DNA of 64,000 nt, taken from positions 191-64,190 of the forward strand of contig DAOULP010000083.1 in the NCBI GenBank assembly GCA_034420175.1. Reading direction: 5' to 3'. Positions 10,308 through 62,259 of this stretch are shown piece by piece. The stretch's first letter is position 1, and each line of letters begins with the position of its first letter. A program made the position numbers and the translations under genes. The notes beneath the pieces were generated by a model that worked only from the letters and a program-made list of their open reading frames with translations, was not told the origin of the DNA and did not search any database. The DNA is from Dehalococcoidia bacterium (lineage in GTDB: Bacteria > Chloroflexota > Dehalococcoidia > DSTF01 > JALHUB01).

Positions 10308-10979
10308 CTAGTGGGCGAAGGGCTCCGTGGCGGCCGTCTCTTCGGACCAGGCACCGCGGCCGATGAGGGGCACGAAGCGGCAGTCGCCGAGCTTGCGGAC
10401 GGTCGTCCCGCTGGGGGTCTTCGTGACGTGGAGAAGCTGCTGCACCCGGCGCTCGCCGACCGGGATGACCAGCCGCCCGCCGAGATTCAGTTGCTCGAGC
10501 AAGGGTCGGGGCACCCGCGGCGCGCCGGCCGTCACCAGGATGGCGTCGTACGGGGCGCTCTCCGGCCAGCCGAGGGCGTCCGCAGCCGTGTGCACCTCGA
10601 CGTTTCCGTAGCCCAGCTCCTCGAGGCGACGACGCGCCCCCTCCGCCAGCTCCGGCACGCGCTCCACCGTCACCACGTGCGCCGCCAGCTCGGCCAGCAG
10701 CGCCGTCTGGTAGCCGGAGCCGGTACCCAGCTCCAGGACCCGCTCGTCGCCGTGCAGGTGGAGGGCCTCGGTCATCATAGCCACCATCAGGGGCTGGGAG
10801 ATGGTCTGGCCGTGCCCGATGGGGAGCGGCCGGTCGTCGTAGGCAATGAGACGGAGGTCACGAGGTACGAAGTGCTCGCGGGGAACGCGCGCCATGGCGT
10901 CCAGGGTTCTCTCGTCGTGCACTTCGTAGCGCAGAGACCGGACGAGGTTCTCGCGGGCGGCGCCGTAGTCGATGGCCAT
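10308..10979 (-). CDS. pcm: Protein-L-isoaspartate O-methyltransferase
   Basis: Classical PCMT motifs: HGQTISQPLMVAMM, VLELGTGSGYQTALLAEL, DAILVTAGAP. Confidence 0.9.
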   Translation of the reverse strand: MAIDYGAARENLVRSLRYEVHDERTLDAMARVPREHFVPRDLRLIAYDDRPLPIGHGQTISQPLMVAMMTEALHLHGDERVLELGTGSGYQTALLAELAAHVVTVERVPELAEGARRRLEELGYGNVEVHTAADALGWPESAPYDAILVTAGAPRVPRPLLEQLNLGGRLVIPVGERRVQQLLHVTKTPSGTTVRKLGDCRFVPLIGRGAWSEETAATEPFAH

Positions 10980-11137
10980 GTCCCCCTTCGCGTCCCCTCG
11001 AAGCCAGGGGGCATCGCGCCCCTACCTTAGCACACCCGAAAGGACCCTCCAAAGGGCGGCGCGCGTGCTACAATTGCCTTCCGTCGCCGGCGCATGGTGA
11101 CCGGGAGGGCTCGGGCGCCGAGGGCGGGGGCTGCGCG

Positions 11138-18388: not shown

Positions 18389-18463
18389 GGCAGCGTAGCT
18401 CAGTGGTAGAGCAGGGGACTCATAAGCCCTTGGTCGCAGGTTCGAATCCTGCCGCTGCTACCA
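18389..18463 (+). tRNA. tRNA-Met (anticodon CAU; could also be tRNA-Ile2 by lysidine modification), with encoded CCA
   Basis: Cloverleaf folded by hand. Acceptor GGCAGCG/CGCTGCT. D-arm GCTC-AGTGGTA-GAGC. Anticodon loop CTCATAA with U33/A37. T-arm GCAGG-TTCGAAT-CCTGC. Discriminator A then CCA. Confidence 0.85.
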
Positions 18464-18481
18464 GAGCCCCATCTTGAATCT

Positions 18482-18520
18482 GTCCCCTGTTTTCGCGAGC
18501 AGGGGACTCTTCTCTTCTGG
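18482..18520 (+). terminator. Rho-independent terminator-like hairpin downstream of tRNA-Met
   Basis: GTCCCCTG-ttttcgcgag-CAGGGGAC, a perfect 8-bp stem, followed by a T-rich run (tcttctcttct). Confidence 0.5.
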
Positions 18521-18693
18521 ACGCCTCTTAGCCTCTCCGGTAGATTCGAGACGGAGTCTAACCGGCAGCCCGTCAGACGAGGGGATAACCAGTCCCCTGG
18601 TCCATAGCGTCTACCGACGCTGCAGCGAGCCCAGGTCCCGACTGCCGGTGCCGGCGTGACCGCGGGAGCACGAACACTTGGCCCGCGTAGTAC

Positions 18694-18723
18694 TTGACAG
18701 CCCCTGCCCGCCAGTGATATGAA
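18694..18723 (+). promoter_or_regulatory. Putative sigma-70-type promoter upstream of the first TasA-like gene
   Basis: TTGACA at 18694-18699, an 18-bp spacer, then TATGAA at 18718-18723. Confidence 0.3.
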
Positions 18724-18799
18724 CCACTACGTCCGAGACCCCGCTATTCCCCGCCCGAGTCAAGTCCGCATCGGCGAGAACTCTCAGGAGACTGGTACC

Positions 18800-19441
18800 A
18801 TGAAGTGGCGAGCACTTTCGTTAGCGTTCACCGCGGCGGGTGTTGGCCTGGCGCTCACTATGGCGTTGGCTCAGCCTTGGACAGATACCCAGACGTCCAG
18901 TGGCAGCATCAACGCGACAACCGAGTCGGCCGAGCTGTATATCTGCGAGCCGGGTGGTGTGGACTGCGAAGTCGACGATAGCGGCGCCGATGAGGCCATC
19001 TTCGAAGGCGTAGAGGACCTGTACCCTGGAGCGACGGCGAGCTATTCGCTGAGGTTGAGAAACGTCGGAACCCTCCCGTGGGACGCCACTGGCATCGCTC
19101 CTGCCTTCGTCGAGACATCCGATCCGGGGGACGACTGTGACATTCAGCCCACCGTCCGCCTCAAGATGGTCTCCAAGAACGACAACCATATCACGAACCC
19201 GGTCGGGGGGTGCGGCAGCAACCCCGACTACGATCCTGGCCTCCCTCAACTCATCACTGAGAGCACTGAATGCGTGGACGGATATGGAATACCCAGGTAC
19301 TACTGCTGCGGGACAATCCATGTAGCTCCGAGCGGCAATGAGGACGTCCACATGTACGTGACTCTGTCTTCCAGCGCACCCGTTGCCTGCAAGGACAACG
19401 TATGGGACCTCTCGATTGTATGGACAGCCACACCAGACTAG
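18800..19441 (+). CDS. Secreted protein with a TasA/camelysin-like (SipW-cognate-type) N-terminal signal region
   Basis: AGGAG RBS. Signal peptide MKWRALSLAFTAAGVGLALTMALA followed by QPWTDTQTSSGSINAT, which resembles the F-S-D-T-E-T-S-S-G-N motif of TasA/camelysin-family signals. Cys-rich mature part. Confidence 0.5.
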   Translation: MKWRALSLAFTAAGVGLALTMALAQPWTDTQTSSGSINATTESAELYICEPGGVDCEVDDSGADEAIFEGVEDLYPGATASYSLRLRNVGTLPWDATGIAPAFVETSDPGDDCDIQPTVRLKMVSKNDNHITNPVGGCGSNPDYDPGLPQLITESTECVDGYGIPRYYCCGTIHVAPSGNEDVHMYVTLSSSAPVACKDNVWDLSIVWTATPD

Positions 19442-19495
19442 CGAGGCTGGATGAGCAGCGTCCTCCCTAATTGGACAAGGCGCGGGTACCCAGCA

Positions 19496-19966
19496 ATGAC
19501 GAAGCTGATACTGCTAGCGACACTCATGGGGGGCCTGGCGCTCTGTGCAGTGGCATACGCCACTGACTCCTGGACCGACTCCCAGACGGCGAACGGCTCC
19601 ATCAGCGCCGCGCCAGACACGGACGGTGACGGACTGTGGAATCCCGTTGACCCTGATGACGACAACGATGGGATATGTGACCCAGGAGTCGTTGACCCGT
19701 CATGTACGGGGTCCGACAACTGCCCCCTTGTCCCCAACTCCGACCAGGCGGACGGCGATGGAGATGGCATCGGTGACGCCTGCGACCAACCCGCTGCCGT
19801 GGGCGGCATCGCCGAACTCCCGGAAGCGGCTACGGCCGCTTTGCCAGAGCGCAGGTCGTCGCCTCCTAACACTGGCGTGCTTGCTGGCCTTTCAGCAGGT
19901 GGCGCCCTGTTGCTGACGGCGGCTGCCTGGTACGCCAGGAGGCGCCGACTCCGCCGAAGGGCTTGA
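19496..19966 (+). CDS. Secreted Ca-binding thrombospondin-type-3-repeat protein with a C-terminal sorting-signal-like anchor
   Basis: Signal MTKLILLATLMGGLALCAVAYA then SWTDSQTANGSISAA, the same motif as the upstream gene. DTDGDGLWNPVDPDDDNDGICD and DNCPLVPNSDQADGDGDGIGDACD are TSP3-like repeats. C-terminus PPNTG + GVLAGLSAGGALLLTAAAW + YARRRRLRRRA has LPXTG-like topology. Confidence 0.55.
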   Translation: MTKLILLATLMGGLALCAVAYATDSWTDSQTANGSISAAPDTDGDGLWNPVDPDDDNDGICDPGVVDPSCTGSDNCPLVPNSDQADGDGDGIGDACDQPAAVGGIAELPEAATAALPERRSSPPNTGVLAGLSAGGALLLTAAAWYARRRRLRRRA

Positions 19967-20098
19967 TGCCTCCGGGTCAGCCAGTATAGAATCCCCTCGT
20001 CAGCCATTTGGGCAAGGCGACCAGGGGATTCGTTCAGAGACCAGGGTTACCGACTTGCCTGCGGAGATTCGGGCAGACAAGTTCGCACCCGATATTGA

Positions 20099-20153
20099 AG
20101 CAGGGGACTCATAAGCCCTTGGTCGCAGGTTCGAATCCTGCCGCTGCTACCAA
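20099..20153 (+). repeat. Direct repeat: 55-nt copy of the 3' part of tRNA-Met (D-stem 3' half through CCA), no 5' half. Att-site-like.
   Basis: Identical to 18409-18463. Upstream sequence does not complete a tRNA. Confidence 0.85.
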
Positions 20154-20168
20154 CCCCCTTGGCCTCCT

Positions 20169-20453
20169 GTGGCAATGCCATTCACAGTGTATGTCCTTCG
20201 GAGCCTGCGCAATGGGCGCCACTACGTTGGGTTCACGTCGCGGAGTCTAGAGCAGCGTCTGGAGGAGCACAACCGCGGGTATCCGAAGGGGTGGTCTTCC
20301 CGCAACGGACCGTTCGAAGTGGTTTATCAGGAGACGCAGGAGTCTGAGGGGGAGGCAAGGGCCAGGGAGCGTTTTCTCGAGGGTGGTGGCGGTAGGGAGT
20401 GGCTGCGCGCGCGGCTGGCAGCGTACCCGCCTGCGGCGGGAGGCGGCTCATAA
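20169..20453 (+). CDS. GIY-YIG nuclease domain protein (YhbQ/UPF0213-like, 94 aa)
   Basis: FTVYVLRSLRNGRHYVGFTSRSLEQRLEEHNRG...PFEVVYQE is the canonical GIY-YIG core. Its TAA stop codon lies inside the anticodon-loop segment (ctcATAA) of the downstream tRNA-fragment repeat. Confidence 0.75.
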   Translation: MAMPFTVYVLRSLRNGRHYVGFTSRSLEQRLEEHNRGYPKGWSSRNGPFEVVYQETQESEGEARARERFLEGGGGREWLRARLAAYPPAAGGGS

Positions 20454-23986: not shown

Positions 23987-25101
23987 TGGCCGGCGATCGT
24001 ATCTGCCCCCAGTGCAACACCGTCGCCGCCGCCGATGCGAGTTTCTGCGACAATTGCGGCGCTGCGCTGTCGCAAGCCTGTCCTTCCTGCGGTAGGGAGT
24101 TGGCGCCCGGCCAGAGGTTCTGCGACGGGTGCGGCGCGCCGGTTGCTGCCGACACCGGCGCTCCCGGAGCGCCGCAGGACGCGCCGCCAGCGGCGGTAAT
24201 GCCACCTTCAACTCCGCGAGGGCGGCCCGGCCTCCCGGCTGCCCGGCGCGCGTTTCTCCTCCCGGCCGCGCTGCTCGGCGTTGGCCTGCTCCTTGCCGTC
24301 GTTGGCGCTGTCCTCGCCTTTCGCGGCGGCTCGGATGGTGACGACAGCTTCTCTCGCGCTCTCAGCAGATCCGGCGCGTTCAGGAGGGAGGCACCAGTGC
24401 CGGTCGACACCACGCCTCCCGGCGGCGCGCCCGATGATGAAGATGCGATCGTAGATGACGAGGATGCCCGCCCGACAGCCAGGCCGACGTCCACCGTGAC
24501 GCCCGAGCCTACGCTAAGCACGGCCTGGGGTGTTGTTCTGGAGGACGACTTCGATTCGGACGCCGGGCTCTGGCCCACCGGTGACTTTGAGGAAGGCAGT
24601 GCCAGCCGCACCAGGGACGTTGCGCAGGGCGTCTACAGCCTCTCGCTTGAATCCGAGGGAGGCTGGCTTGCTCCAGAGCTCGTTCCCGTCGACCTCGGAT
24701 CGGACTTCTACGTGGCTGTGGATGCGCTCAGGCAGGTGGGAGGCCCGGAGGCGGTCTGCGGCCTCATCATTGCGGGCAGCGGGACCTATCCTCGCGTGGC
24801 TCTGCTAGCCGCGGACCTGGACGGTAGTTTCCGCGTCTATCGCGTGGGCGAACAGGGCGCCGAGTTGGAGAATCTCATTGCCCTGACGCCCTCTTCCGCC
24901 ATCCAGGCTGGCTCGTTCAATAGCCTGGCCATCATTTCTCAAGGATCGCGTCTCGCCTTCTACATCAATACCGAGAAGGCCGGCGAGATCTATGATTCGC
25001 CGGTGGGCAACGTCGAATGGGCAGGCGTGGTGACGGGTCTCTGGGACGCCCGGGGCGCAGCCACCTGCCAGTTCGACAACTTCGAGGTGCGCGTTCCCTG
25101 A
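23986..25101 (+). CDS. Double zinc-ribbon (DZR) membrane protein with an extracytoplasmic domain
   Basis: AGGAGGGA RBS. ATG overlaps the upstream TGA (TGATG). CPQCNTVAAADASFCDNCGAAL and CPSCGRELAPGQRFCDGCGAPV are zinc ribbons. Single TM (AFLLPAALLGVGLLLAVVGAVLAF). About 250-aa C-terminal domain. Confidence 0.65.
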   Translation: MAGDRICPQCNTVAAADASFCDNCGAALSQACPSCGRELAPGQRFCDGCGAPVAADTGAPGAPQDAPPAAVMPPSTPRGRPGLPAARRAFLLPAALLGVGLLLAVVGAVLAFRGGSDGDDSFSRALSRSGAFRREAPVPVDTTPPGGAPDDEDAIVDDEDARPTARPTSTVTPEPTLSTAWGVVLEDDFDSDAGLWPTGDFEEGSASRTRDVAQGVYSLSLESEGGWLAPELVPVDLGSDFYVAVDALRQVGGPEAVCGLIIAGSGTYPRVALLAADLDGSFRVYRVGEQGAELENLIALTPSSAIQAGSFNSLAIISQGSRLAFYINTEKAGEIYDSPVGNVEWAGVVTGLWDARGAATCQFDNFEVRVP

Positions 25102-25427
25102 CGCCGGTCCAGCGGCGCTCTCGCAGACGCGCGCGATCCCGCCGAAACGCACCGTGTGAGAACAAGGATGGCGTCGTGCGCGGCGCGCTCGCGGACGGGT
25201 CGGTCAGGGCCCTCCGCCCAGCGTCCCCTTCCCGCCCACGACGGCAATGGACGTGAGGTTCTCGTCGAGGTCGATTGTCTTCACACCGGCGCCGGTGTTC
25301 CGGTCCCTACTTGAGGGGGCGTTGGAGCAATCGAGCCGGCCCGCCTGCGTTCTCCCTCCTGCAGAGGTGGCGAACCGGCCCGAATATCGGAGTTGGTGGA
25401 GACGGGGGAGAATTGAACTAACCCTAT

Positions 25428-25453
25428 GGCGTCTGTAGGCGTCGCTAGGCGTC
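25428..25453 (+). repeat. Three direct GGCGTC repeats at 10-bp phasing (ctatGGCGTCtgtaGGCGTCgctaGGCGTCggtt)
   Basis: Seen directly in the 540-bp gap between convergent genes. Possible regulator-binding iteron or chance. Confidence 0.3.
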
Positions 25454-25641
25454 GGTTGCAGATTCAGAATGGCCCTCTGCCGTCGCCCCCAGTCGCTGCG
25501 TCTGGCGGTCAGATTGGCGGTCAAGAATCCGTCCGCGTGCGACAGCCTCTCTACAACAGATCTGCGACCAGCTGGCCCGACAGGACGGCGGCAAGAACCA
25601 TGAGGGAGCCGACGAAGAACCCGTGGAGCCACCAGCGGAAT

Positions 25642-26373
25642 CTACTCTCGTGCTTCACCCGAGACTCGCCACCCAGCAAGGGGTTCGAAATAGGGCTCCA
25701 GCCTCGGGGCGAGCCCCAAGAATGAAGTCGAGTAGCTGATGAGATGGTAGTACAGCAGCCCCAGAGCTGCCGCCCGGCCGTTGACGGCTTGGAATGGCGC
25801 GTCACTCTCCCACTGTATCCTGTGGCCCTTTGCGACGAGAATCCCGCGGCTCAGAACGCAAATGAGATCCACAACGCCCTGGGCTTCCTCTTTCAGGAGT
25901 GTCTGCCACGTGGCACCCTCGTAGGCAAAGACGCAGCACAAGGGACGACTGTGGACAGGCCCTCGGCTCAACCCCGTGAAACCACCAGCGGGAGCCAGGT
26001 TCCTAACTCGTTTGAGCGCCGTCACAGCCTCTGCCAGTTTTTCCCTCGTCAGTTTCGACTTGACCTCAATGACAGCGAAGACGCCCTCGACCAGGTAGGC
26101 GTCCGCGCCGCCATACTCGAGTGAGGCAGCATCTTCTCTTAGTATGATGAGTTCGAGTTGTCCAGACTTATTGCCCTGGCTGTCCCATATCTCGCCTGGT
26201 CGGATGGTCAGCTTCGGCGGCAGGACGCGCTCCAGGAAGTTGCTGCAGAACAACTCCCGATTGTACCCCACGTTTGCAGACGCGCCCTGTTGCCCGGACC
26301 TTCGATACTGGCGAAGAAGCACACCGGACGTGTCATCGAAGTACTCGTAGAGGACGGGGCGCGAGATGCTCAC
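25642..26373 (-). CDS. Hypothetical protein, possibly PD-(D/E)xK nuclease-like
   Basis: 243 aa. Candidate catalytic-core motifs D..(QLELIIL)..EVK (GVFAVIEVKSKL). Lower local GC. Divergent from the AlbA_2/Schlafen gene. Confidence 0.4.
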   Translation of the reverse strand: MSISRPVLYEYFDDTSGVLLRQYRRSGQQGASANVGYNRELFCSNFLERVLPPKLTIRPGEIWDSQGNKSGQLELIILREDAASLEYGGADAYLVEGVFAVIEVKSKLTREKLAEAVTALKRVRNLAPAGGFTGLSRGPVHSRPLCCVFAYEGATWQTLLKEEAQGVVDLICVLSRGILVAKGHRIQWESDAPFQAVNGRAAALGLLYYHLISYSTSFLGLAPRLEPYFEPLAGWRVSGEARE

Positions 26374-26487
26374 AACGGCCGTATTCTAGCACACAGCAAG
26401 CCTCGTGGCGTTCACGAATATCGCCTCGGGCTGTACAATACGTCCGGTTCCGGCCGAGACCGCCGACTAGGTTGGAGCTAGCCCGAA

Positions 26488-27705
26488 ATGCTGCCCAAAC
26501 ATCCTGACCTCTACACCCACGACGAACTCGACACCTGGGTCAACCACCTGGTAGATGATCAGGTCGCGGAAGGGCCCCGTCTTGACTACAAGCAGTCAAT
26601 CGCCCTCGACAGCCAAAGCGAGCGCAGAGAGGCGGCCAAGGACATCTCGTCCTTTGCGAACGAGGTGGGCGGTTGCCTGATCTACGGTGTCCCGGAGAAG
26701 CGGCTTCCCCAGGACAGGGCAATTCCCCAGAGGCCGTACGGCATTGATCCCATCCCCGAAGTCGAGTCGCGTCTGGAGAACATCTACGTAGACGCGATCA
26801 AGCCTGTGCTCCAAGAGTGGCGCATCAGGAGGATCGGGCTCTCGCAATACCCCGGCAAGGTCGTCTATCTGGCATGGACACCGGAAAGCTGGGTAGGCGT
26901 GCACATGGTGGAAGCCTACGGGGATCGGCGCTACTACCGCCGCGGGCAACTGCGGGCCGTGGAGATGGCCGAGCACGAGGTCCGGGCCCGATATGAACGG
27001 GCTGCGGCTGCCCGCGACCGCCTTGCGGACTTCTTGTCTTCACCGGAACTCAACTACGTCCGCCAGCGGCTCCCCAAGGGCTTCGTTAGCCGCTACGTTG
27101 CCTCGCCGGTGCCGCTCACCACGACGAGAATAGACATGCAGAACAGCAGGTTCAGAGCCTGGCTTCAATCGCGTGCCGTGCCTCTGAGGCCGTGGCAGCC
27201 CTCCCCCTACGGAGCAAGGACCGACCTACCACGCGGGGGCTGGTCCCGTTCGGAGAGATACGCCGAGATCTTTCGAAACGGTGCCCTGGCGGTCTGGATC
27301 CCGACTGCCGCCGACCAAGAGAAGGATGGAACGTACACCTTCCCCTACCTTTGGGAGCTTAGTACACTCCTGGACTTCCTCAGATTTGCCAAGGACCTGT
27401 ACGGCGAGATTCAATACTGGGGGCCTCTCCGCTTCCTGGTGGATGTAGCCCACGAGTACACACCCGCCAGTGCCCTAACGTTCAGCCCCCCTACCCTCAG
27501 GTTCCCTGTCGGCCGGTTCAACTCGGACTGGCGTGCTCTTGAAACACACGATGGAGCACTCCGAGTTGCCGTAGAAGAATCGTCAGCAACCCTGCAGAAC
27601 AGCCCAAACAAGGTGCTCAAGCGACTTGCCGACGAGATATTCCACGCTTTCGGCCTCTGGGAGGCCACCTGTTTTGATGACGACCTGAACCTCATTCGTC
27701 GCTGA
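26488..27705 (+). CDS. AlbA_2 / Schlafen-like (putative DNA-binding, divergent ATPase-like) domain protein with an uncharacterised 250-aa C-terminal domain
   Basis: N-terminal EGPRLDYKQSIALDSQSERREAAKDISSFANEVGGCLIYGVPE matches the AlbA_2 (PF04326-type) signature E..LEFK.....kdisAFANt.GG.l..GV. Confidence 0.6.
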   Translation: MLPKHPDLYTHDELDTWVNHLVDDQVAEGPRLDYKQSIALDSQSERREAAKDISSFANEVGGCLIYGVPEKRLPQDRAIPQRPYGIDPIPEVESRLENIYVDAIKPVLQEWRIRRIGLSQYPGKVVYLAWTPESWVGVHMVEAYGDRRYYRRGQLRAVEMAEHEVRARYERAAAARDRLADFLSSPELNYVRQRLPKGFVSRYVASPVPLTTTRIDMQNSRFRAWLQSRAVPLRPWQPSPYGARTDLPRGGWSRSERYAEIFRNGALAVWIPTAADQEKDGTYTFPYLWELSTLLDFLRFAKDLYGEIQYWGPLRFLVDVAHEYTPASALTFSPPTLRFPVGRFNSDWRALETHDGALRVAVEESSATLQNSPNKVLKRLADEIFHAFGLWEATCFDDDLNLIRR

Positions 27706-28196
27706 CTCCCTGCCTCTCTAGTGCAGGGTGTCGCGTGATCGCACGGTGCAAGTTGCAGGGCTCGCCGACGAGCCCGGCGACATGAGATGCACTCCACACT
27801 CGCCGAAGTCCAACAGCCGCTCGTGAGACGGCGAGGCCCTGGTCCTCCCCAGGCAGAGGCATGCGCTGGAGCGGGCCAAAGACCAACCACATGAGTTGTG
27901 CGAGGCGGTCCGGAGGTATGCCCGCCCGTTCAGGCTGGGCGAACCCGGCGACGAACCGCTGAGCGTGGTGAGGGGGTAGCGCGGTGGCACCAAGGGGGAT
28001 ACGAGCGAGTCCCGCGCCCCTCGCAGGGCGAACACTGTGAGCGGATGGCGACGCCTGCGCTGCGCCGCGCAACGTGGCCGCCGTCAGCCGGGAAGAGGCG
28101 GCCATGCTCGGCCGCTGCGGCAACCGCCGACGCTCATTGAACGCGGGGACGGATTCGGGCGTTGGGGCGGTGGAGCACGTAGACGAAGCCGCGACA

Positions 28197-30698
28197 TCAC
28201 GCGGCCTTTCTTGATTCCTGTGCAGCGTCACGGAGGAGCTCAGATACCTCACGAGGCCGTCCAATGTGGTATCCCTGGGCGTAATCCACCCCGTGCTCCC
28301 GAAGCCATCGTAGGGTCTGCTCGTCGCCCACGAACTCGGCGATGGTCTTCATGGCCAGTCCACGGGCGACCTGCACCATGGCCCGAACCATATGCTGGTC
28401 CACCGGGCTCACTGGAAGATCGAGGACAAAGCTGCCGTCGATCTTCAAGTAGTCGACGGGCAGGTGCTTCAACTGATTGAAGGAGGAGAAGCCCACGCCG
28501 AAGTCATCAAGGGCGAAACGGCATCCGAGAGCCTTCAGAGTTCTCACGAATCCTTGTGCGTCACCGATGTTGGCTATGGCGGCCGTCTCCGTCACTTCCA
28601 GCACCAAAGATGCTGGATCAATCGAGGTCGCCTCCAGTTCCCGCTGTATCAGGGGCAGCAACTCGGCATCGGAGAACGCCTTGCCCGAGAGGTTGACCTC
28701 AAGCCGCAGATCCCTGCCACTGCGCATCTGCTCGGCGATGATGTGGATGGCCCGCGTCACCACCCAGCGGTCTATGGCCTGGATCATGCCAAAGCGTTCG
28801 GCGATGTCGACGAACGCCTTCGCAGGAACGATCTTGTCTCCTCCATCCAAGCGGAGCAGCAGCTCATACTGGCTGATTCTGTTTCTGGGTAGGTCGAGAA
28901 TGGGCTGGGCGTAGAGCATGAGAAGGTCCTTGTCTATGGCTTCCCGGACGCGGTTCCGCCAGCCGAGCCTGGAGCCGATCTCCTCTTGCCACTTCCTCTC
29001 CGGCGCATAGACGCGGTAGGTATTGCGCCCATCTTCCTTCGCCTGGTACATGGCCAGATCAGCGCGGGCAAGCAGCTCTTCAGCCGTGTCCCCGTGCTCT
29101 GGGTAGAACGCCACGCCAGCGCTTGCCGTGACGGTGATGGGGTGCCCGCCGATGACGAACGGATGGTGTCGCACCATCTCGATGAGTTGCTCAGCCAGCG
29201 CATCTGCCTCCTCGGCATCCGTGTGAGACAGCATAATGCAGAACTCGTCGCCCCCGGGGCGTGCGACGATGTCCGTCTTCCTGAGCCGTCGCCGCAGGAG
29301 GACAGCCAGGTTCGCAAGAAGCTCATCGCCCGCCCCGTGCCCCAGACTGTCGTTCACATCCTTGAACTGATCCAGGTCCAAGAACAGCAGCGCCCCGTGT
29401 GTGCCATAGCGCTCCGCTTCCGCCAGCTCGCGGTCGAGCTCCTCCTCCAATCGACGCCGATTGAACAGATCCGTCAAGGGGTCATGACTAGCCAGGTGTA
29501 TGAGTTGCCCTTCATAGCGCTTGCGCTCCGTGATGTCCCTGAAGGTGACGACCGCACCCAAGATCTCCCCGTGGTCGTCCCGGATCGGGGTCACGATGTA
29601 CTCGACCGGAAAGCTGGTGCCGTCCTTTCTCCAGAACAGCTCGTCTGTGACGCGGTGAACGGTACCGTCGCTGATGGCAGCGCAGACAAGACACTGCTCC
29701 TCGGGGTAGAGGGTGCCATCTGGCTTCGAGCGGTGCACCACGTCGTGGGATCCTTGGCCGATCAGGTCCGCCACCTCGCACCCAATCATTCGCGCTGCCG
29801 CCGGGTTTGCGAACGTGGTCCGCCCTTGCCGGTCGACCCCGAAGATGCCTTCCCCCGCTGCCTTGAGAATGAGTTCGTTCTGTCGACTCACCCGCAGTAG
29901 ATCTTCCTCTGCGTGCTGGCGCCCGGCGACCATCAGATTGAAGTCCTGGGCAAGAGATGTCACCTCGCTAGGTCCGGAGACTTCGGCTCTCACACTCAAG
30001 TCGCCCTGCGTGATCGCCTTGACACTGCCCCGTAGCAACCTCAGGGGGCGCACGACCGAGAAGACCAGCATGACCACGAGCGCCGTCCCGCCGGTTAGGG
30101 CGACCGCGCTTAGGCCGACCATCAGCGTAGTGGTCATCTGGGAGGCCCGGTCCGCCGCCGCCCCTGCGCTGGCCAGCTCCGCCTGCTGCCGCAAGGACAA
30201 TTGACTCAGCTCGGTCGTCCGCGCGCCGGTAGTGGGCCACATTAGCGGGAAGTAGTATTGGCCCATATCGATTCTGGTGGAGATGTCGGCGGTGAGGGCC
30301 CTTTCGACACTCGCCTCTATCGTTGCGTCCTCCCGAGCGGTCTCGGCAGCGAACTGCTCCAGCACAGCCAAGCCATCTTCGTCGCCCAGAGCGCTGAGCC
30401 CAGCCAGACTCTGGTCAAGCGCCAGAGATCGCTCCTCCACTGTCTCATGGTACAGGTCAATGAAGGGAGTTGCGTCTTCTGCGAACACGGCAGCGGCCAG
30501 CATCGTCATGCCCCTCAGCGCCTGATAGCGCACGTTCTCCAGGGCGACGACGACCTCAGATCTCTGCTCCAGCGAGCGGTGGCGACGCCCCTGATCGCGG
30601 GCGTAGGAAAGGCCCACGATCGCCACGATCGCGAGAATCAGCATGAAGCCGGTGCCAGCCAGCAAGGACCGTCCTTGGGCCGATCTCCAACTGAACAT
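28197..30698 (-). CDS. Membrane sensor diguanylate cyclase/phosphodiesterase (periplasmic sensor, HAMP, PAS, GGDEF, EAL)
   Basis: Two TM segments flank a periplasmic domain. HAMP (ITQGDLSVRAEVSGPSEVTSLAQDFN). PAS. GGDEF motif RPGGDEF. EAL motifs YELLLRL and EVTET. Confidence 0.9.
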   Translation of the reverse strand: MFSWRSAQGRSLLAGTGFMLILAIVAIVGLSYARDQGRRHRSLEQRSEVVVALENVRYQALRGMTMLAAAVFAEDATPFIDLYHETVEERSLALDQSLAGLSALGDEDGLAVLEQFAAETAREDATIEASVERALTADISTRIDMGQYYFPLMWPTTGARTTELSQLSLRQQAELASAGAAADRASQMTTTLMVGLSAVALTGGTALVVMLVFSVVRPLRLLRGSVKAITQGDLSVRAEVSGPSEVTSLAQDFNLMVAGRQHAEEDLLRVSRQNELILKAAGEGIFGVDRQGRTTFANPAAARMIGCEVADLIGQGSHDVVHRSKPDGTLYPEEQCLVCAAISDGTVHRVTDELFWRKDGTSFPVEYIVTPIRDDHGEILGAVVTFRDITERKRYEGQLIHLASHDPLTDLFNRRRLEEELDRELAEAERYGTHGALLFLDLDQFKDVNDSLGHGAGDELLANLAVLLRRRLRKTDIVARPGGDEFCIMLSHTDAEEADALAEQLIEMVRHHPFVIGGHPITVTASAGVAFYPEHGDTAEELLARADLAMYQAKEDGRNTYRVYAPERKWQEEIGSRLGWRNRVREAIDKDLLMLYAQPILDLPRNRISQYELLLRLDGGDKIVPAKAFVDIAERFGMIQAIDRWVVTRAIHIIAEQMRSGRDLRLEVNLSGKAFSDAELLPLIQRELEATSIDPASLVLEVTETAAIANIGDAQGFVRTLKALGCRFALDDFGVGFSSFNQLKHLPVDYLKIDGSFVLDLPVSPVDQHMVRAMVQVARGLAMKTIAEFVGDEQTLRWLREHGVDYAQGYHIGRPREVSELLRDAAQESRKAA

Positions 30699-46820: not shown

Positions 46821-47618
46821 CTAGCCGGCCTTCAATTCGTCAGCCTGTCGCTCAACCAGAGGCCAGGGCTGGCGCAAGCCGAGGAGCGCCAGGGTGGCCG
46901 TGAGCCGGTCCGGCGTGCCAAGTCGACGGTAGGCGTGTCGCAGGTGAGTCTTCACCGTCCCGACGCTGAGGTGGAGCCTGGCCCCGATCTCCTTGTTGCT
47001 CATGCCCCGCGCCACGAGCTCAAGCACCTCCCCCTCACGAGGACTGACAGAGTGCAACACGCGGGGGTCTACTCGAGCGCCTGCGTCCAGACGTCCAGCG
47101 CGTTCTTGTGGGGCTCGCTGCTCAGGTAGTCGAGAGGCTACCAGCGGGTCCATCACAAACCAGCGATGGGCGACGGCCAACAGCGCGCTCGGGAGAGCGT
47201 CTCCCGCCAGGCTCCCGAGAACGTACCCGCTAGCACCGGCCCGAACCGCTGCCATCAAGGAATCCGCGCTGGCATCGCGGGCCAGCACAACCACGTGCGC
47301 GCCTGCGAAGGCCTGGACGACACGCCGGAGCGATTCCGCTCCGTCTGATTCCAGAAGGTCTATCCCCACCAGCACGATGTCTGGTGGAGGACAGCGGAAC
47401 GTATCCAGGCTCATCAGGTCGGCGGATGGCCCCGCCACCACCTCCAGATCTCGGCAGGCGGAGAGAGCCGCCTGAATGCCGTCCCGCAATAGGGGGGACG
47501 GCTCCAACAAGAGGATCCGTCGGCGGCGGACTGCGGCTGCTGAGTCGGCTTGGCCAATCGAGAGGTGTTCACCACTCCCGGTGGGCGCGGGGCCACTTGC
47601 GGTGAGATTCTGTGTCAT
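46821..47618 (-). CDS. NarL/FixJ-family response regulator (REC + LuxR HTH)
   Basis: GGAGGAG RBS before ATG 47618; the ORF opens at 47744. Receiver RILLLEPSPLLRDGIQ..DIVLVGIDL. LuxR HTH LSPREGEVLELVARGMSNKEIGARLHLSVGTVKTHLRHAYRRLG. Confidence 0.85.
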   Translation of the reverse strand: MTQNLTASGPAPTGSGEHLSIGQADSAAAVRRRRILLLEPSPLLRDGIQAALSACRDLEVVAGPSADLMSLDTFRCPPPDIVLVGIDLLESDGAESLRRVVQAFAGAHVVVLARDASADSLMAAVRAGASGYVLGSLAGDALPSALLAVAHRWFVMDPLVASRLPEQRAPQERAGRLDAGARVDPRVLHSVSPREGEVLELVARGMSNKEIGARLHLSVGTVKTHLRHAYRRLGTPDRLTATLALLGLRQPWPLVERQADELKAG

Positions 47619-47733
47619 TGGGTCTCCTCCCTGCTGCAGACGGTGCGTCTTGGCCGATGGACCACTGCTGGCATCACATCTGCGGGCTACAGGTGCCCCG
47701 CTTCCCCCGGGGCGGTGTCCGAACACCATCACG

Positions 47734-48531
47734 CTAGGCCGCATCCACGGCCTTCGTCTCGGCCACCATCTTGCGAAGACGGCTCAAGGCGCGACGGTGG
47801 ATCTCGCAGGCGCGGGCGGACGACACTCCCAGACATCGCGAGATGCTCACCATCGTGTCACCGTGGAAGTACCGGCGAACCACGACTTCCCGCTCGCGGT
47901 GTGGGAGCGAGGCCACCATTCTGCGGATGAACTCGGCCTGAATCCGATCGATAGCAGCCTCTTCGGCCGGCCCCTCGCTGCCCCCCTTCTCCTCAGCTTC
48001 CCTTCCCGCTTCCCACAGATGTAGGGTGCGAATGGCCCGCGACTCCATCAACGCTCTGGCCTCCCTCCGGCCCGTTCCCAGCCGGGCCGCCACTTCAGCC
48101 GGTTCCGGCTCACGCCCTAGTTCGATCGCGAGTTCGCTCCACACGGCGTCGTACCGCCGCAGGTTGTCTCGTATCTGACGGGAGTGAGGCTCCGCCCTTC
48201 GAAGCGAGTCGACGATGGCACCACGGATGCGGATGGAGGCGAAGGCCGAGAAGGCCACGCCCCGCTCCGGCTCGAAGGCGTGGGCCGCCTGCACCAGCGC
48301 CACATAGCCGTCGCTTTCGGCGTCCTCTCGGCCCACCCGCCCGCTGTCTTGTACCAGACATCGGGCGAAGTACCTCACCAAAGGAATGCAGCTCGTGATC
48401 AATTTCTCCTGTGGCGTCAACTCTCTTCTTGCCCTCCGTCGGCATCGTTGCCGACTGCGGCAGCCGGACGAGCGCTGCTGGCTGCCATCGTTCCTTCCCA
48501 AGGCGACACCATTGTGCGCCTGACGGATCAC
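47734..48531 (-). CDS. Sigma-70 family RNA polymerase sigma factor (group 3, FliA/SigB-like)
   Basis: Region 2 (LITSCIPLVRYFARCLV..DAESDGYVALVQAAHAFEPERGVAFSAFASIRIRGAIVD). Region 4 HTH (VVRRYFHGDTMVSISRCLGVSSARACEIHRRALSRLR). Exact start uncertain. Confidence 0.8.
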   Translation of the reverse strand: MIRQAHNGVALGRNDGSQQRSSGCRSRQRCRRRARRELTPQEKLITSCIPLVRYFARCLVQDSGRVGREDAESDGYVALVQAAHAFEPERGVAFSAFASIRIRGAIVDSLRRAEPHSRQIRDNLRRYDAVWSELAIELGREPEPAEVAARLGTGRREARALMESRAIRTLHLWEAGREAEEKGGSEGPAEEAAIDRIQAEFIRRMVASLPHREREVVVRRYFHGDTMVSISRCLGVSSARACEIHRRALSRLRKMVAETKAVDAA

Positions 48532-60340: not shown

Positions 60341-61381
60341 GTGGAGACGATGACATCGAAGACACTGCGGCGAAAACGAGGCGTGGCCGAGCATACTGCC
60401 ACGCCGGATGTCAGCATTGTCATACCGACTCACAACCGTTGCTCGTTGCTTGAGAAGGCTCTGTGCCGTCTCGCGGCCCAGACAGTGGATATGTCCCGGG
60501 CAGAGGTCGTCGTGGTCCTTGATGGCTGCACCGATGGCACCCAGGACATGTTACCCGCGCGAGACTGGCCCTTTGGTCTCCGGGTGATCGTGCAGGAGCA
60601 GAAAGGCCCGGGCGCGTCCCGGAATGCCGGAGCAAGAGCCGCCCGCTCGCTGGTGCTCGTCTTCATCGATGACGACATCATGGCGGAACCAGACCTTGTG
60701 GAGGGTCACCTCCGTGCCCATCAGGACACGGAGACGGCGGTGGCCGTTGGCCGCCTGGCGCCCGATCCCTCGCCCAAGGTGCCCGGCTGGTGGCGCTGGT
60801 TGGAGTGGCAGCTCGGCAAGCAGTACGCGGCGATTCAGACGGGCGAGCGTCCGACGGATGGTCGATCCCTCTACAGTGGCAACTTCTCGGTCAAACGCGA
60901 GGCATTCATGCGGGTCGGGGGGTTCGATGAAGGCCTGCGCCATTCGGAAGACATCGAGCTGGGCCTGCGGCTGGAACAAGATGGCGCCACTTTTCGTCTG
61001 CTGGGGGACGCCTGTGGGGAGCACTGGGGCTACACGACCTATGAGTCATGGCTTGAGATGGCCGCCAGGTACGGTCGCTGGGACGGCGCACTGGCGGTCA
61101 ATCCTCAGTATCCCTTCGCCTGGGATCGGCTCTTCGACGCCTATCGGCAGCGGAGTCCTCTGCTTCGGCGCTGCGCGAAGGTAGTCTTGGACCACCCGAC
61201 ACGATTCGGAGTGCTCGTGCGTCTGTTACGAGCGATCAGCCTGGTCGCCCATGCTCTGCACGTTCGTGTCCTGGAGCGGATCCTCTATGCCGGCATCTAC
61301 GATCTCACCTACTGGCAGGGGGTCTGCGATGAGTGGGGTGGGGCAAGGGTTCTGTGGAGGACGTTGCGGAGGCAAGGATGA
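60341..61381 (+). CDS. Glycosyltransferase family 2
   Basis: VSIVIPTHNR...VVVVLDGCTDGT...VFIDDDIMAEPDLVEGH...SGNFSVKREAF shows DxD and GT-A motifs. Confidence 0.85.
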   Translation: METMTSKTLRRKRGVAEHTATPDVSIVIPTHNRCSLLEKALCRLAAQTVDMSRAEVVVVLDGCTDGTQDMLPARDWPFGLRVIVQEQKGPGASRNAGARAARSLVLVFIDDDIMAEPDLVEGHLRAHQDTETAVAVGRLAPDPSPKVPGWWRWLEWQLGKQYAAIQTGERPTDGRSLYSGNFSVKREAFMRVGGFDEGLRHSEDIELGLRLEQDGATFRLLGDACGEHWGYTTYESWLEMAARYGRWDGALAVNPQYPFAWDRLFDAYRQRSPLLRRCAKVVLDHPTRFGVLVRLLRAISLVAHALHVRVLERILYAGIYDLTYWQGVCDEWGGARVLWRTLRRQG

Positions 61382-62259
61382 CCCTTCGGGGTGAACTGGC
61401 CGGTCCGATGGCTGACGAGAGGCTCGCACTTCCTCGAACGCGCGACCTGTACTGGTTCAGCATGCGCTTGGGTCTGGGATCACTCGGCCGGGGGCCGAGA
61501 AGGGCTGCGCTCGCCCGTGTACTGAACCCTCTGGCCTATCCGAGGGGGATGGAATTCGCCCTGACGCTTCGCGGGCTCAGTCTGCCCCAGGCGGGCCGTG
61601 TACTTGACATAGCGAGCCCCAAGCTACTCTTCCTCTGGCTGGCCTCTCACACCTCCACGATCATTCACACTACCGACATCACGACGGACTTCGTGGCTCC
61701 CGTGGAGCACTTCGTTGGCCGCCTCGGGCTGAGTGGCGATCTGCAGAACCGACTGTACCTGGAGCAGCAGGACGCCCGTGCTCTTACGTATGAGGACGCT
61801 TCCTTTGACGCCGTCTACTCCATATCGGTCGTGGAGCACATTCCGGGCCATGGCGACAGCGCTGCTCTGCGGGAGATGGGCCGGGTCCTTCGACCCGGCG
61901 GTCGCGCCTGTCTGACGGTGCCGTTCCATCACCGCGACTACGGGGAGACGTGGGTAGCCGGCGACGTCTTCGAGCGCCGACGGAGCCGGAACGGCGAACG
62001 GCTCTTCTACGAGCGCCGCTACAACCCTGACGAACTGCGGCGACGGCTCGTGGAGCCTTCGGGCCTGCGCCTGGAGAGCTTCACCTGCTTCGGCGAGCCC
62101 TACGTGCCGTTCGACCGCTTATGGAGGAGGCTCCCCTTGCTCGCTCACCTGCCCCTCGGCTGGGCCCAGCCTCTCTTCGAGGCCGCTCTGCTGCGACCTC
62201 TGGAGCAGGGGCGGGTTGACAGAGCTATCGGCGTCGCTCTGACGCTTGTCAAGGACTAG
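61378..62259 (+). CDS. Class I SAM-dependent methyltransferase (Methyltransf_11-like)
   Basis: ATG overlaps the GT2 stop (ATGA). VLDIASPK...YEDASFDAVYSISVVEHIPGHGD...RVLRPGGRACLTV. Confidence 0.7.
   Translation: MTLRGELAGPMADERLALPRTRDLYWFSMRLGLGSLGRGPRRAALARVLNPLAYPRGMEFALTLRGLSLPQAGRVLDIASPKLLFLWLASHTSTIIHTTDITTDFVAPVEHFVGRLGLSGDLQNRLYLEQQDARALTYEDASFDAVYSISVVEHIPGHGDSAALREMGRVLRPGGRACLTVPFHHRDYGETWVAGDVFERRRSRNGERLFYERRYNPDELRRRLVEPSGLRLESFTCFGEPYVPFDRLWRRLPLLAHLPLGWAQPLFEAALLRPLEQGRVDRAIGVALTLVKD

Follow-up and report, generated by a model that had tools for sequence, protein, structure and literature searches.

Loosely linked prokaryotic Schlafen and NucC-fold nuclease genes in a Dehalococcoidia contig: a candidate islet of two single-gene defences

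Prokaryotic Schlafens (pSlfns) combine a PF04326 domain, which carries the catalytic motif E-x4-(E/D)-x-K, with diverse sensor domains, and act as single-gene, trigger-activated tRNases (PMC13056530; PMC13462974). Proteins with a TBP-like fusion are listed as a class that makes up 1.5% of 5,930 pSlfns, and 30% of pSlfn genes are located away from defence genes, so that possible non-immune roles have been raised (PMC13056530). Tight association with nuclease-based systems is frequent among prokaryotic Schlafens, and the catalytic triad E17/D22/K24 of CbCash, a Schlafen associated with clustered regularly interspaced short palindromic repeats (CRISPR), was verified experimentally (PMC13462974). 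The nuclease NucC, an effector of type III CRISPR and of the cyclic-oligonucleotide-based anti-phage signalling system (CBASS), is defined by an ID-x30-EAK site (D73, E104 and K106), by contacts of R53, Y81 and T226 to cyclic tri-AMP (cAAA or cA3), and by a gate-loop latch formed by H136 and Y141 (10.1101/694703). Damona, a single-gene anti-phage cassette with a DUF6602 domain, comes from the chromosomal integron of Vibrio cholerae (10.1101/2024.07.02.601686). Here, we analysed a 64,000-nucleotide stretch of contig DAOULP010000083.1 from a Dehalococcoidia bacterium (GCA_034420175.1; the whole stretch is referred to as the window), in which a gene for a 405-residue Schlafen protein adjoins a gene for a 243-residue nuclease with the NucC fold. 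The initial annotation of the locus had stated that the AlbA_2/Schlafen fold recurs in antiphage proteins, and both domain types belong to anti-phage families (PMC13056530, PMC13462974, 10.1101/2024.07.02.601686, 10.1101/694703). For both parent families, activity of the single gene has been documented.

The locus is, on balance, probably a mini-islet, acquired horizontally, of two autonomous single-gene defences that are joined by a loose, lineage-specific linkage and do not constitute an obligate two-component system. The two proteins can be filed as further members of recently named families: the 405-residue protein as a pSlfn with a probable TBP-like sensor, and the 243-residue protein as a stand-alone nuclease of the DUF6602/NucC-like type. 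The initial annotation could not match the locus to a named system; we found that the Schlafen fits the definition of pSlfns and that the nuclease shares the profile signature of Damona. The open reading frames (ORFs) are exactly as they had been described, with two divergent genes separated by a 114-bp spacer and flanked by convergent neighbours. The N-termini of both proteins align with those of their homologs, and the start codons are therefore credible. The features of the pair are as follows.

25642..26373, minus strand: gene of the predicted NucC-fold nuclease, 243 residues, GTG start, PD-(D/E)xK endonuclease of the DUF6602 family
26059..26154, minus strand: predicted active-site codons of the nuclease, with Glu74 at 26152-26154 and Glu103-Val104-Lys105 at 26059-26067, equivalent to D73...E104-A-K106 of NucC
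26374..26487, no strand: divergent intergenic spacer of 114 bp between the nuclease gene and the Schlafen gene
26488..27705, plus strand: Schlafen (pSlfn) gene, 405 residues, ATG start, encoding an N-terminal Slfn/AlbA_2 RNase-type domain and a probable C-terminal TBP-like domain
26557..27012, plus strand: Slfn/AlbA_2 domain, residues ~24-175, with the catalytic-type motif E28-x4-D33-x-K35 at nucleotides 26569-26592
27040..27702, plus strand: C-terminal domain of ~220 residues without a sequence family, predicted fold TBP-like, presumed sensor or regulatory module

The 243-residue protein matched the Pfam family PF20247 (DUF6602) with an E-value of 2e-20. Among the PADLOC profiles, the best match was to the Cas-associated PD_DExK profile (3e-24), and the NucC effector models matched at 2e-9 and 9e-8. 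A search of the PDB sequences with the single sequence reached Serratia NucC at 7e-4, and a profile of 30 members of the DUF6602 family matched NucC from Serratia, V. metoecus, E. coli and P. aeruginosa over residues 36-231 with E-values of 7e-15 to 5e-7. The AlphaFold2 model of the monomer had a predicted local distance difference test score (pLDDT) of 90.4. The best 14 Foldseek matches of the model in the PDB were all NucC (E-values 6e-16 to 7e-11, template-modelling (TM) scores 0.60-0.71, ~250 columns), and type II restriction enzymes followed only at E>2e-3. As modelled, the protein is a full-length NucC-fold PD-(D/E)xK nuclease (TM-score 0.71), which narrows the PD-(D/E)xK core that had been suggested for it to one specific fold. 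The predicted catalytic residues E74, E103 and K105 are kept in the alignment to NucC from E. coli and Serratia; within the DUF6602 family, K105 is invariant, E103 is nearly invariant, and position 74 is an acidic residue, Asp in most members and Glu in the window. Of the D...E-V-K arrangement proposed in the initial annotation, E103-V104-K105 was thus found as described, and the upstream acid is Glu74. The alignments suggest that the protein is probably an active DNase.

Four of the five residues of the NucC cA3 pocket and latch are lost from the 243-residue protein, and R53 alone is kept, as K54 (K or R in the family). In the profile alignment, Y81 of NucC corresponds to an invariant D81, T226 to L219, and H136 and Y141 to L135 and V140 in a variable loop; this comparison relies on an alignment that is less certain in its C-terminal part. 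The positions of the DUF6602 family that are equivalent to the pocket are strongly conserved but chemically changed, with K/R54, the invariant D81, and an invariant C-terminal PYFEP..W. The loop of residues 127-142 has the same length as the gate loop of NucC and was modelled with lower pLDDT. No CD-NTase, Cas10 or cas gene was detected among the 51 ORFs of the window in a PADLOC sweep, in the public annotation of the 10 kb on either side of the pair (metagenome-assembled genome (MAG) GCA_964632905.1, 131-kb contig), or around more than 20 loci of nuclease homologs. Regulation by cA3 is unlikely, to judge from the aligned residues. Since the protein has lost the contacts to cyclic tri-AMP and lacks a cyclase or CRISPR partner nearby, it likely works in the manner of Damona under a control other than cA3, and by analogy it resembles a stand-alone defence nuclease.

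A PADLOC match of the CARF3 model to the gene at 46824-47783 (minus strand) was considered as a sign that the window encodes a cyclase or CRISPR partner and rejected, as it covers only residues 226-288 of 320 and is helix-turn-helix-like (HTH-like). The Csa3 model of PADLOC matched one ORF of the window (E-value 2e-14) and was absent from the 20 ORFs that were scanned singly. Matches of the mad2 model at 10311-11021 and 61333-62256 were not counted as defence genes. Some homologs of both proteins are broken: DUF6602 genes at two of the retrieved loci (numbered here with the prefix L), L084 (7770-8741) and L085 (328-852), contain one in-frame stop each, near profile position 150-155, and the Schlafen genes of L050, L070, L071 and L073 are split into two to three ORFs. 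Either pseudogenes or assembly errors account for these cases.

The peptide EGPRLDYKQSIALDS...KDISSFANEVGGCLIYGVPE, on which the prediction of an N-terminal AlbA_2/Schlafen domain had been based, is present in the 405-residue protein, and the prediction was borne out by a match to Pfam PF04326 (SLFN_AlbA_2) at 29 bits (gathering score 25.3) and by the full length of the domain (more than 100 residues). The domain contains the motif E28-GPRL-D33-Y-K35, of the form E-x4-D-x-K, the three charged residues of which are invariant in 32 members of the family and are aligned by the family profile to the catalytic triad of CbCash. By domain and motif, the protein is a pSlfn. The AlphaFold2 model had a pLDDT of 90.1, with the C-terminal domain of ~220 residues confidently modelled. 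The initial annotation had called this domain unassignable; it has a beta-alpha-beta4-alpha topology and matches TBP and TBP-like folds weakly but consistently, and a TBP-like fusion is probable according to the model. We infer from the fold only that the protein falls in the published class of TBP-like pSlfns.

The C-terminal domain is without conserved polar residues in the family alignment. An identity as a transcription regulator of the AlbA_2-HTH or HisKinase type was rejected, since the C-terminal HTH and GHKL modules are both missing: no Pfam or NCBIfam match to an HTH or HATPase_c_4 module was found after AlbA_2, and the predicted fold is TBP-like, not winged HTH or GHKL. A search with the C-terminal domain alone returned three fragments of the same family only and is uninformative on its reuse in other architectures. 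The full-length Schlafen/TBP-like architecture is common in metagenomes, with 407 representatives of clusters at 50% identity at E<=1e-30. In the window, the only defence-type neighbour of the Schlafen gene is the NucC-like gene, and the contexts of the family range from swappable cassettes to a carA-carB operon. In a distant clade of ~31% identity, a gene for a 135-residue DUF2513 protein abuts or overlaps the 3' end of the Schlafen gene (L048, L052, L055 and L066, e.g. L052:1554-1958), and it may be a clade-specific partner.

The linkage of the two genes was assessed from both sides. Starting from the Schlafen, we retrieved 76 metagenome loci, 21 of which have 1.5 kb or more of sequence to either side of the gene, and the nuclease was found beside the Schlafen at one of the 76 (L006, Schlafen 77% identical to that of the window). 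On the nuclease side, none of the 14 genome loci contained the Schlafen family, which was a partner in one of ~16 independently sampled contexts; extra look-ups yielded the case of L106. In L006, the nuclease is upstream of the Schlafen gene in tandem on the same strand, 228 bp apart. In L106, a nuclease 62.5% identical to that of the window is convergent to a gene for a 405-residue Schlafen (45% identical) at a distance of 98 bp. All three paired loci therefore differ in orientation, with the divergent arrangement of the window (114 bp) as the third form. The three adjacencies are not due to chance, since both families are rare, and the loose, non-operonic, lineage-specific linkage of nuclease and Schlafen is real.

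The two genes are also separable. Between the window and the loci of the closest Schlafen relatives (65-77% identical), and among those loci, the Schlafen gene is all that is shared; the homology begins 3-36 nucleotides before the start codon and stops at most ~14 nucleotides past the stop codon. Locus L003 contains a Schlafen 88% identical to that of L006 without the nuclease. Conversely, L104 contains a nuclease 97% identical to that of L006 within collinear flanks, in which an unrelated 1.16-kb segment takes the place of the 1.3-kb Schlafen cassette (L006:2077-3388 versus L104:1402-2563, flanks 96% and 90% identical). These loci, together with the flanks of the relatives, show that both genes are individually mobile and dispensable to each other over very short evolutionary distances. 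In the clade of the window, the Schlafen gene is a context-free, swappable cassette. The counts of co-occurrence, the three different orientations and the cassette swap between L006 and L104 led us to reject an obligate two-gene system. The replacement segment of L104 encodes a secreted-looking protein of 244 residues, and the flanks upstream of the nuclease block (976 bp) are also non-homologous between L006 and L104.

The neighbours of DUF6602 genes are varied and include a kinase with unknown proteins, a TCAD9/STAND NTPase, a PIN_12/8 protein, methyltransferases, ParE, a type III restriction-modification (R-M) system, a type IIG R-M enzyme, SoFic and a resolvase. Some of these contexts recur: a PIN_12/PIN_8 protein of 422-441 residues is located downstream of other DUF6602 nucleases in two contexts, Xanthomonas MOBH plasmids encode a 150-residue HD-domain protein downstream of DUF6602, ~5 kb from a tyrosine recombinase, and another nuclease is followed by a Ser/Thr kinase and two unknown proteins (coordinates of the recurrent partners: L108:512-2950; L102:6013-7222; L103:6001-7213; L095:7001-10580). 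A hidden domain common to the partner proteins (PIN_12/8, kinase, HD, and unknowns of 244, 338 and 392 residues) and to either half of the Schlafen was sought by hidden Markov model and BLAST searches, and none was found.

A second context of the Schlafen/TBP-like family is very different from that of the window. At about ten loci (L010-L027, e.g. L012:646-7793), a member of the same 400-residue family is located within the pyrimidine/arginine operon in the order dihydroorotase - carA - Slfn - carB, with gaps between Slfn and carB of -24 to +31 nucleotides. The Schlafen identity tracks that of carA and carB (84/97/84%, 74/90/71% and 58/77/64%), which indicates vertical, operonic inheritance of this clade, and its members still have the invariant catalytic motif.

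The AT-richer segment pointed out in the initial annotation is real but modest. The guanine-cytosine (GC) content of 25642-27705 is 60.5%, below all sampled 2,064-bp windows of the 64 kb (mean 65.2%, standard deviation 1.8%, minimum 60.6%), and the GC content at third codon positions (GC3) is 0.70 and 0.73 in the genes of the pair versus 0.74-0.92 in the neighbouring genes. Horizontal acquisition is suggested because the pair is the lowest in GC within the window. The surroundings of the pair comprise the following features.

25102..25641, no strand: left spacer of 540 bp from the nuclease gene to the convergent zinc-ribbon gene, left edge of the low-GC pair, GC content 0.66
27706..28196, no strand: right spacer of 491 bp from the Schlafen gene to the convergent GGDEF-EAL gene, containing the minus-strand ORF 27692-28264
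gene ending at 25101, convergent: left neighbour, DZR (double-zinc-ribbon) protein
28197-30698, minus strand: right neighbour, HAMP-PAS-GGDEF-EAL gene, convergent

The 114-bp spacer contains a sole sigma-70-like site, TTCACG-17-TACAAT at 26411-26439 on the plus strand, upstream of the Schlafen gene; the site is a consensus match only, with one found versus 0.5 expected. The sequence that the spacer has in common with relatives is restricted to the last 20-36 nucleotides before the Schlafen ATG. The 540-bp and 491-bp flanking spacers are without similarity to the related loci; the left one has a single 29-nucleotide partial match within the window and no tRNA or Rfam match. Nothing that would mark the pair as a discrete mobile element was found around it, whether a tRNA, an Rfam family, a recombinase or a meaningful repeat in the flanks. 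A 13-nucleotide inverted repeat flanking the pair (25525/28144) was discarded as an element boundary, as it is at chance level for a GC-rich region of 3.4 kb. The minus-strand ORF 27692-28264 of 186-190 residues, which overlaps the 3' end of the Schlafen gene, is a 186-residue gene in the public record. It was rejected as a third component because its GC content at the three codon positions is 0.72/0.60/0.71 (real genes here have ~0.45 at the second position), and it has no Pfam match and no homolog in the related loci. To judge from its composition, it is probably non-coding, which would leave unusually long (~0.5 kb) non-coding spacers on both sides of the pair.

The same nuclease/Schlafen pair is also present on one Logan contig, and the few named homologs point to Chloroflexota. 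A phage origin was rejected, since a tblastn search of 50,697 phage records gave no match. Plasmid-borne DUF6602 genes are only distant (~30% identity) and are paired with an HD-domain gene. A second low-GC patch is located within 18389-20453 of the window (0.59 at 19000-19750), just downstream of its only tRNA gene (tRNA-Met, 18389-18463). It contains the ORFs 18800-19441 and 19451-19966, which have no family match, and a 92-residue GIY-YIG ORF, and it may be an integrated element.

Based on the predicted structures, the genomic contexts and the known members of both families, a mode of action of the two genes can be proposed. The nuclease and Schlafen genes would be transcribed independently from their own promoters. 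The N-terminal domain of the Schlafen, with its intact E-x4-D-x-K site of a metal-dependent RNase, would cleave tRNA once activated, by analogy to RorSlfn5 and CbCash, and the C-terminal TBP-like domain may recognise a phage cue as a sensor or auto-inhibitory module. The 243-residue protein would be a restriction-endonuclease-like DNase of the NucC fold that, similarly to Damona, cuts DNA under a control other than cyclic tri-AMP. The recurrent neighbourhood in one nuclease lineage probably reflects a common variable hotspot in which cassettes are shuffled. The three orientations and the separability of the genes point to such co-residence, perhaps with a complementary benefit, and not to a co-transcribed interdependent system. 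Defences that target RNA and DNA are possibly complementary, which would favour their adjacency.

Several observations weigh against two autonomous genes. When 116 DUF6602 proteins were placed in a neighbour-joining tree, the copies adjacent to a Schlafen (window, L006/P0104 and L106/P0105) fell in an exclusive clade of four leaves, and they are the nearest relatives of the window protein in a database of 5.8 billion sequences. Schlafen adjacency is found in three of the four contexts of this closest clade, to which the enrichment is limited. The Schlafen partners of the window and L106 are only 45% identical, and the partners of the linked nucleases belong to two separate clades, with the smallest clade containing both comprising 64 of 96 sequences. 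Either the linkage outlasted deep divergence and three rearrangements, or it arose repeatedly; both histories hint at a functional tie. In addition, the carA-carB clade is atypical for a defence gene and leaves room for a non-immune role of the Schlafen family, and the likeness of the nuclease to Damona is one of profile signature alone (DUF6602, Cas PD_DExK and small CBASS endonuclease). A genuine dual-nuclease system of two genes with operon-independent linkage would accommodate the adjacency in the closest clade despite the diverged Schlafens and the three orientations. The Schlafen/TBP-like protein would then sense infection and license the NucC-like DNase directly or via RNA products, or the nuclease would back up the RNase, and the remodelled pocket would answer a signal from the partner. 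L106 is the outgroup to the window and L006 in both gene trees, which is compatible with co-inheritance; the conserved yet chemically changed pocket positions (K/R54, D81 and PYFEP..W) and the published association of Schlafens with nuclease-based systems (PMC13462974) point in the same direction. We nevertheless consider such a system unlikely, since gene order and orientation are not conserved, near-identical solo copies exist (L104, 97%; L003, 88%), the partner is missing at more than 70 Schlafen loci and ~15 nuclease contexts, and members of both parent families act as single genes. The two-gene immunity system proposed in the initial annotation thus retains the linkage in the closest clade and loses generality, with one of 76 Schlafen loci, one of ~16 nuclease contexts, and varying orientation. 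As grounds against it, the initial annotation had listed the lack of a nuclease fold together with families that never co-occur, or a housekeeping ortholog as the AlbA_2 protein; the nuclease fold is confirmed, the families co-occur, albeit rarely, and a large Schlafen clade is inherited vertically between carA and carB. A specific form of the dual-nuclease idea appears improbable to us: the DUF6602 clade would be a NucC-derived DNase with a rebuilt three-fold allosteric pocket (an invariant Asp for the adenine-stacking Tyr and the new invariant PYFEP..W) that answers a signal dependent on the Schlafen-TBP-like protein, either RNA cleavage products or direct binding, and would provide orientation-independent, cyclase-free immunity by an RNA and a DNA nuclease.

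Two further explanations separate the genes altogether. The 243-residue protein could be a canonical second-messenger effector that responds to a cyclic oligonucleotide from a distant CBASS CD-NTase or type III CRISPR Cas10, with the Schlafen as an incidental neighbour. The full-length NucC fold, including the loop 127-142 of gate-loop length, the K/R54 at the position of R53, and the best PADLOC match to the Cas-associated PD_DExK profile are consistent with this, and the analysis covered 64 kb out of the 131 kb of the contig, which belongs to an incomplete MAG. The replacement of Y81 by an invariant Asp, of T226 by Leu, and of H136/Y141 by variable aliphatic residues, the lack of cyclase, Cas10 and cas genes in the window and around more than 20 homologs, and the restriction of the CARF-model matches in the window to an HTH-like segment make this explanation very unlikely. 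It is also doubtful that the locus has no immune role, with the AlbA_2/TBP-like protein as a nucleic-acid-binding regulator or RNA-processing factor, the nuclease as a solitary restriction-like or repair enzyme, and a meaningless juxtaposition. The ten or so carA-carB loci, with identities that track the flanking genes and gaps to carB of -24 to +31 nucleotides, would fit such a role, as would the 30% of pSlfn genes that are not near defence genes (PMC13056530) and the lack of known defence genes in the window beyond the pair. Against it stand the invariant E-x4-D-x-K motif across the Schlafen family, the TBP-like C-terminal half in place of an HTH in the Pfam scan and fold searches, the cassette behaviour of the Schlafen gene in the clade of the window, the compositional anomaly of the pair, and the several nuclease homologs that adjoin R-M, SoFic or toxin genes.

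If the reading of two autonomous defences is correct, the locus is a further environmental example of two defence families that are very young, the bacterial Schlafens and the stand-alone DUF6602/NucC-like nucleases. It would suggest that a TBP-like domain may serve as a Schlafen sensor, that the NucC fold persists without cyclic-nucleotide signalling, and that defence genes targeting RNA and DNA are repeatedly found together, yet are individually swappable. The side observation of the carA-carB clade is perhaps more interesting for the Schlafen field, as it bears on non-immune roles of some prokaryotic Schlafens.

Among the known systems, the effector domain of SAMD9/SAMD9L and mammalian SLFN11/13/14 differ in that they belong to eukaryotic, multi-domain proteins with helicase or STAND modules, and the N-domains of mammalian SLFN are two-lobed versus the single lobe of the 405-residue protein. 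The pSlfns RorSlfn5 and EcoSlfn7 (Nat Microbiol 2026, PMC13056530) share with it the N-terminal PF04326 domain with the Ex4(E/D)xK motif and the combination of effector and C-terminal non-catalytic domain in a single polypeptide. The C-terminal domains of these tested proteins are Ig-like or DUF262, whereas that of the window protein is probably TBP-like, and part of its family is a stable gene of the carA-carB operon. In the PDB, the family profile matched CbCash (PDB 9ylu; PMC13462974) best at the level of sequence (E-value 0.013, residues 26-146 to 15-135); the CbCash triad E17/D22/K24 aligns exactly with E28/D33/K35, and CbCash originates from a Chloroflexi bacterium. CbCash differs in its Csx15 Rossmann-like cA4 sensor and its location in type III CRISPR loci, whereas the 405-residue protein has a predicted TBP-like domain and no CRISPR context. 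NucC (CBASS/type III CRISPR effector; PDB 6p7p, 6q1h, 6uxf and 7zgv; 10.1101/694703) and the 243-residue protein share the predicted fold of the whole chain (243 versus 241 residues), the catalytic acid...E-x-K at the same positions, a basic residue at the position of R53, and the N-terminal motifs G..NE...LP...DS.G..S.Q.D. Their identity is only 18-20%, Y81 and T226 are replaced by the invariant Asp and Leu, the latch H136/Y141 is not conserved, and the gene in the window has no CD-NTase, HORMA/Trip13 or Cas10 neighbour. Damona was found in an integron and in an apparently different host phylum: the gene in the window is located outside an integron, with no attC-like or recombinase features seen, and the few named homologs are from Chloroflexota MAGs. 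The two have in common the behaviour of a stand-alone gene and a cassette-like mobility.

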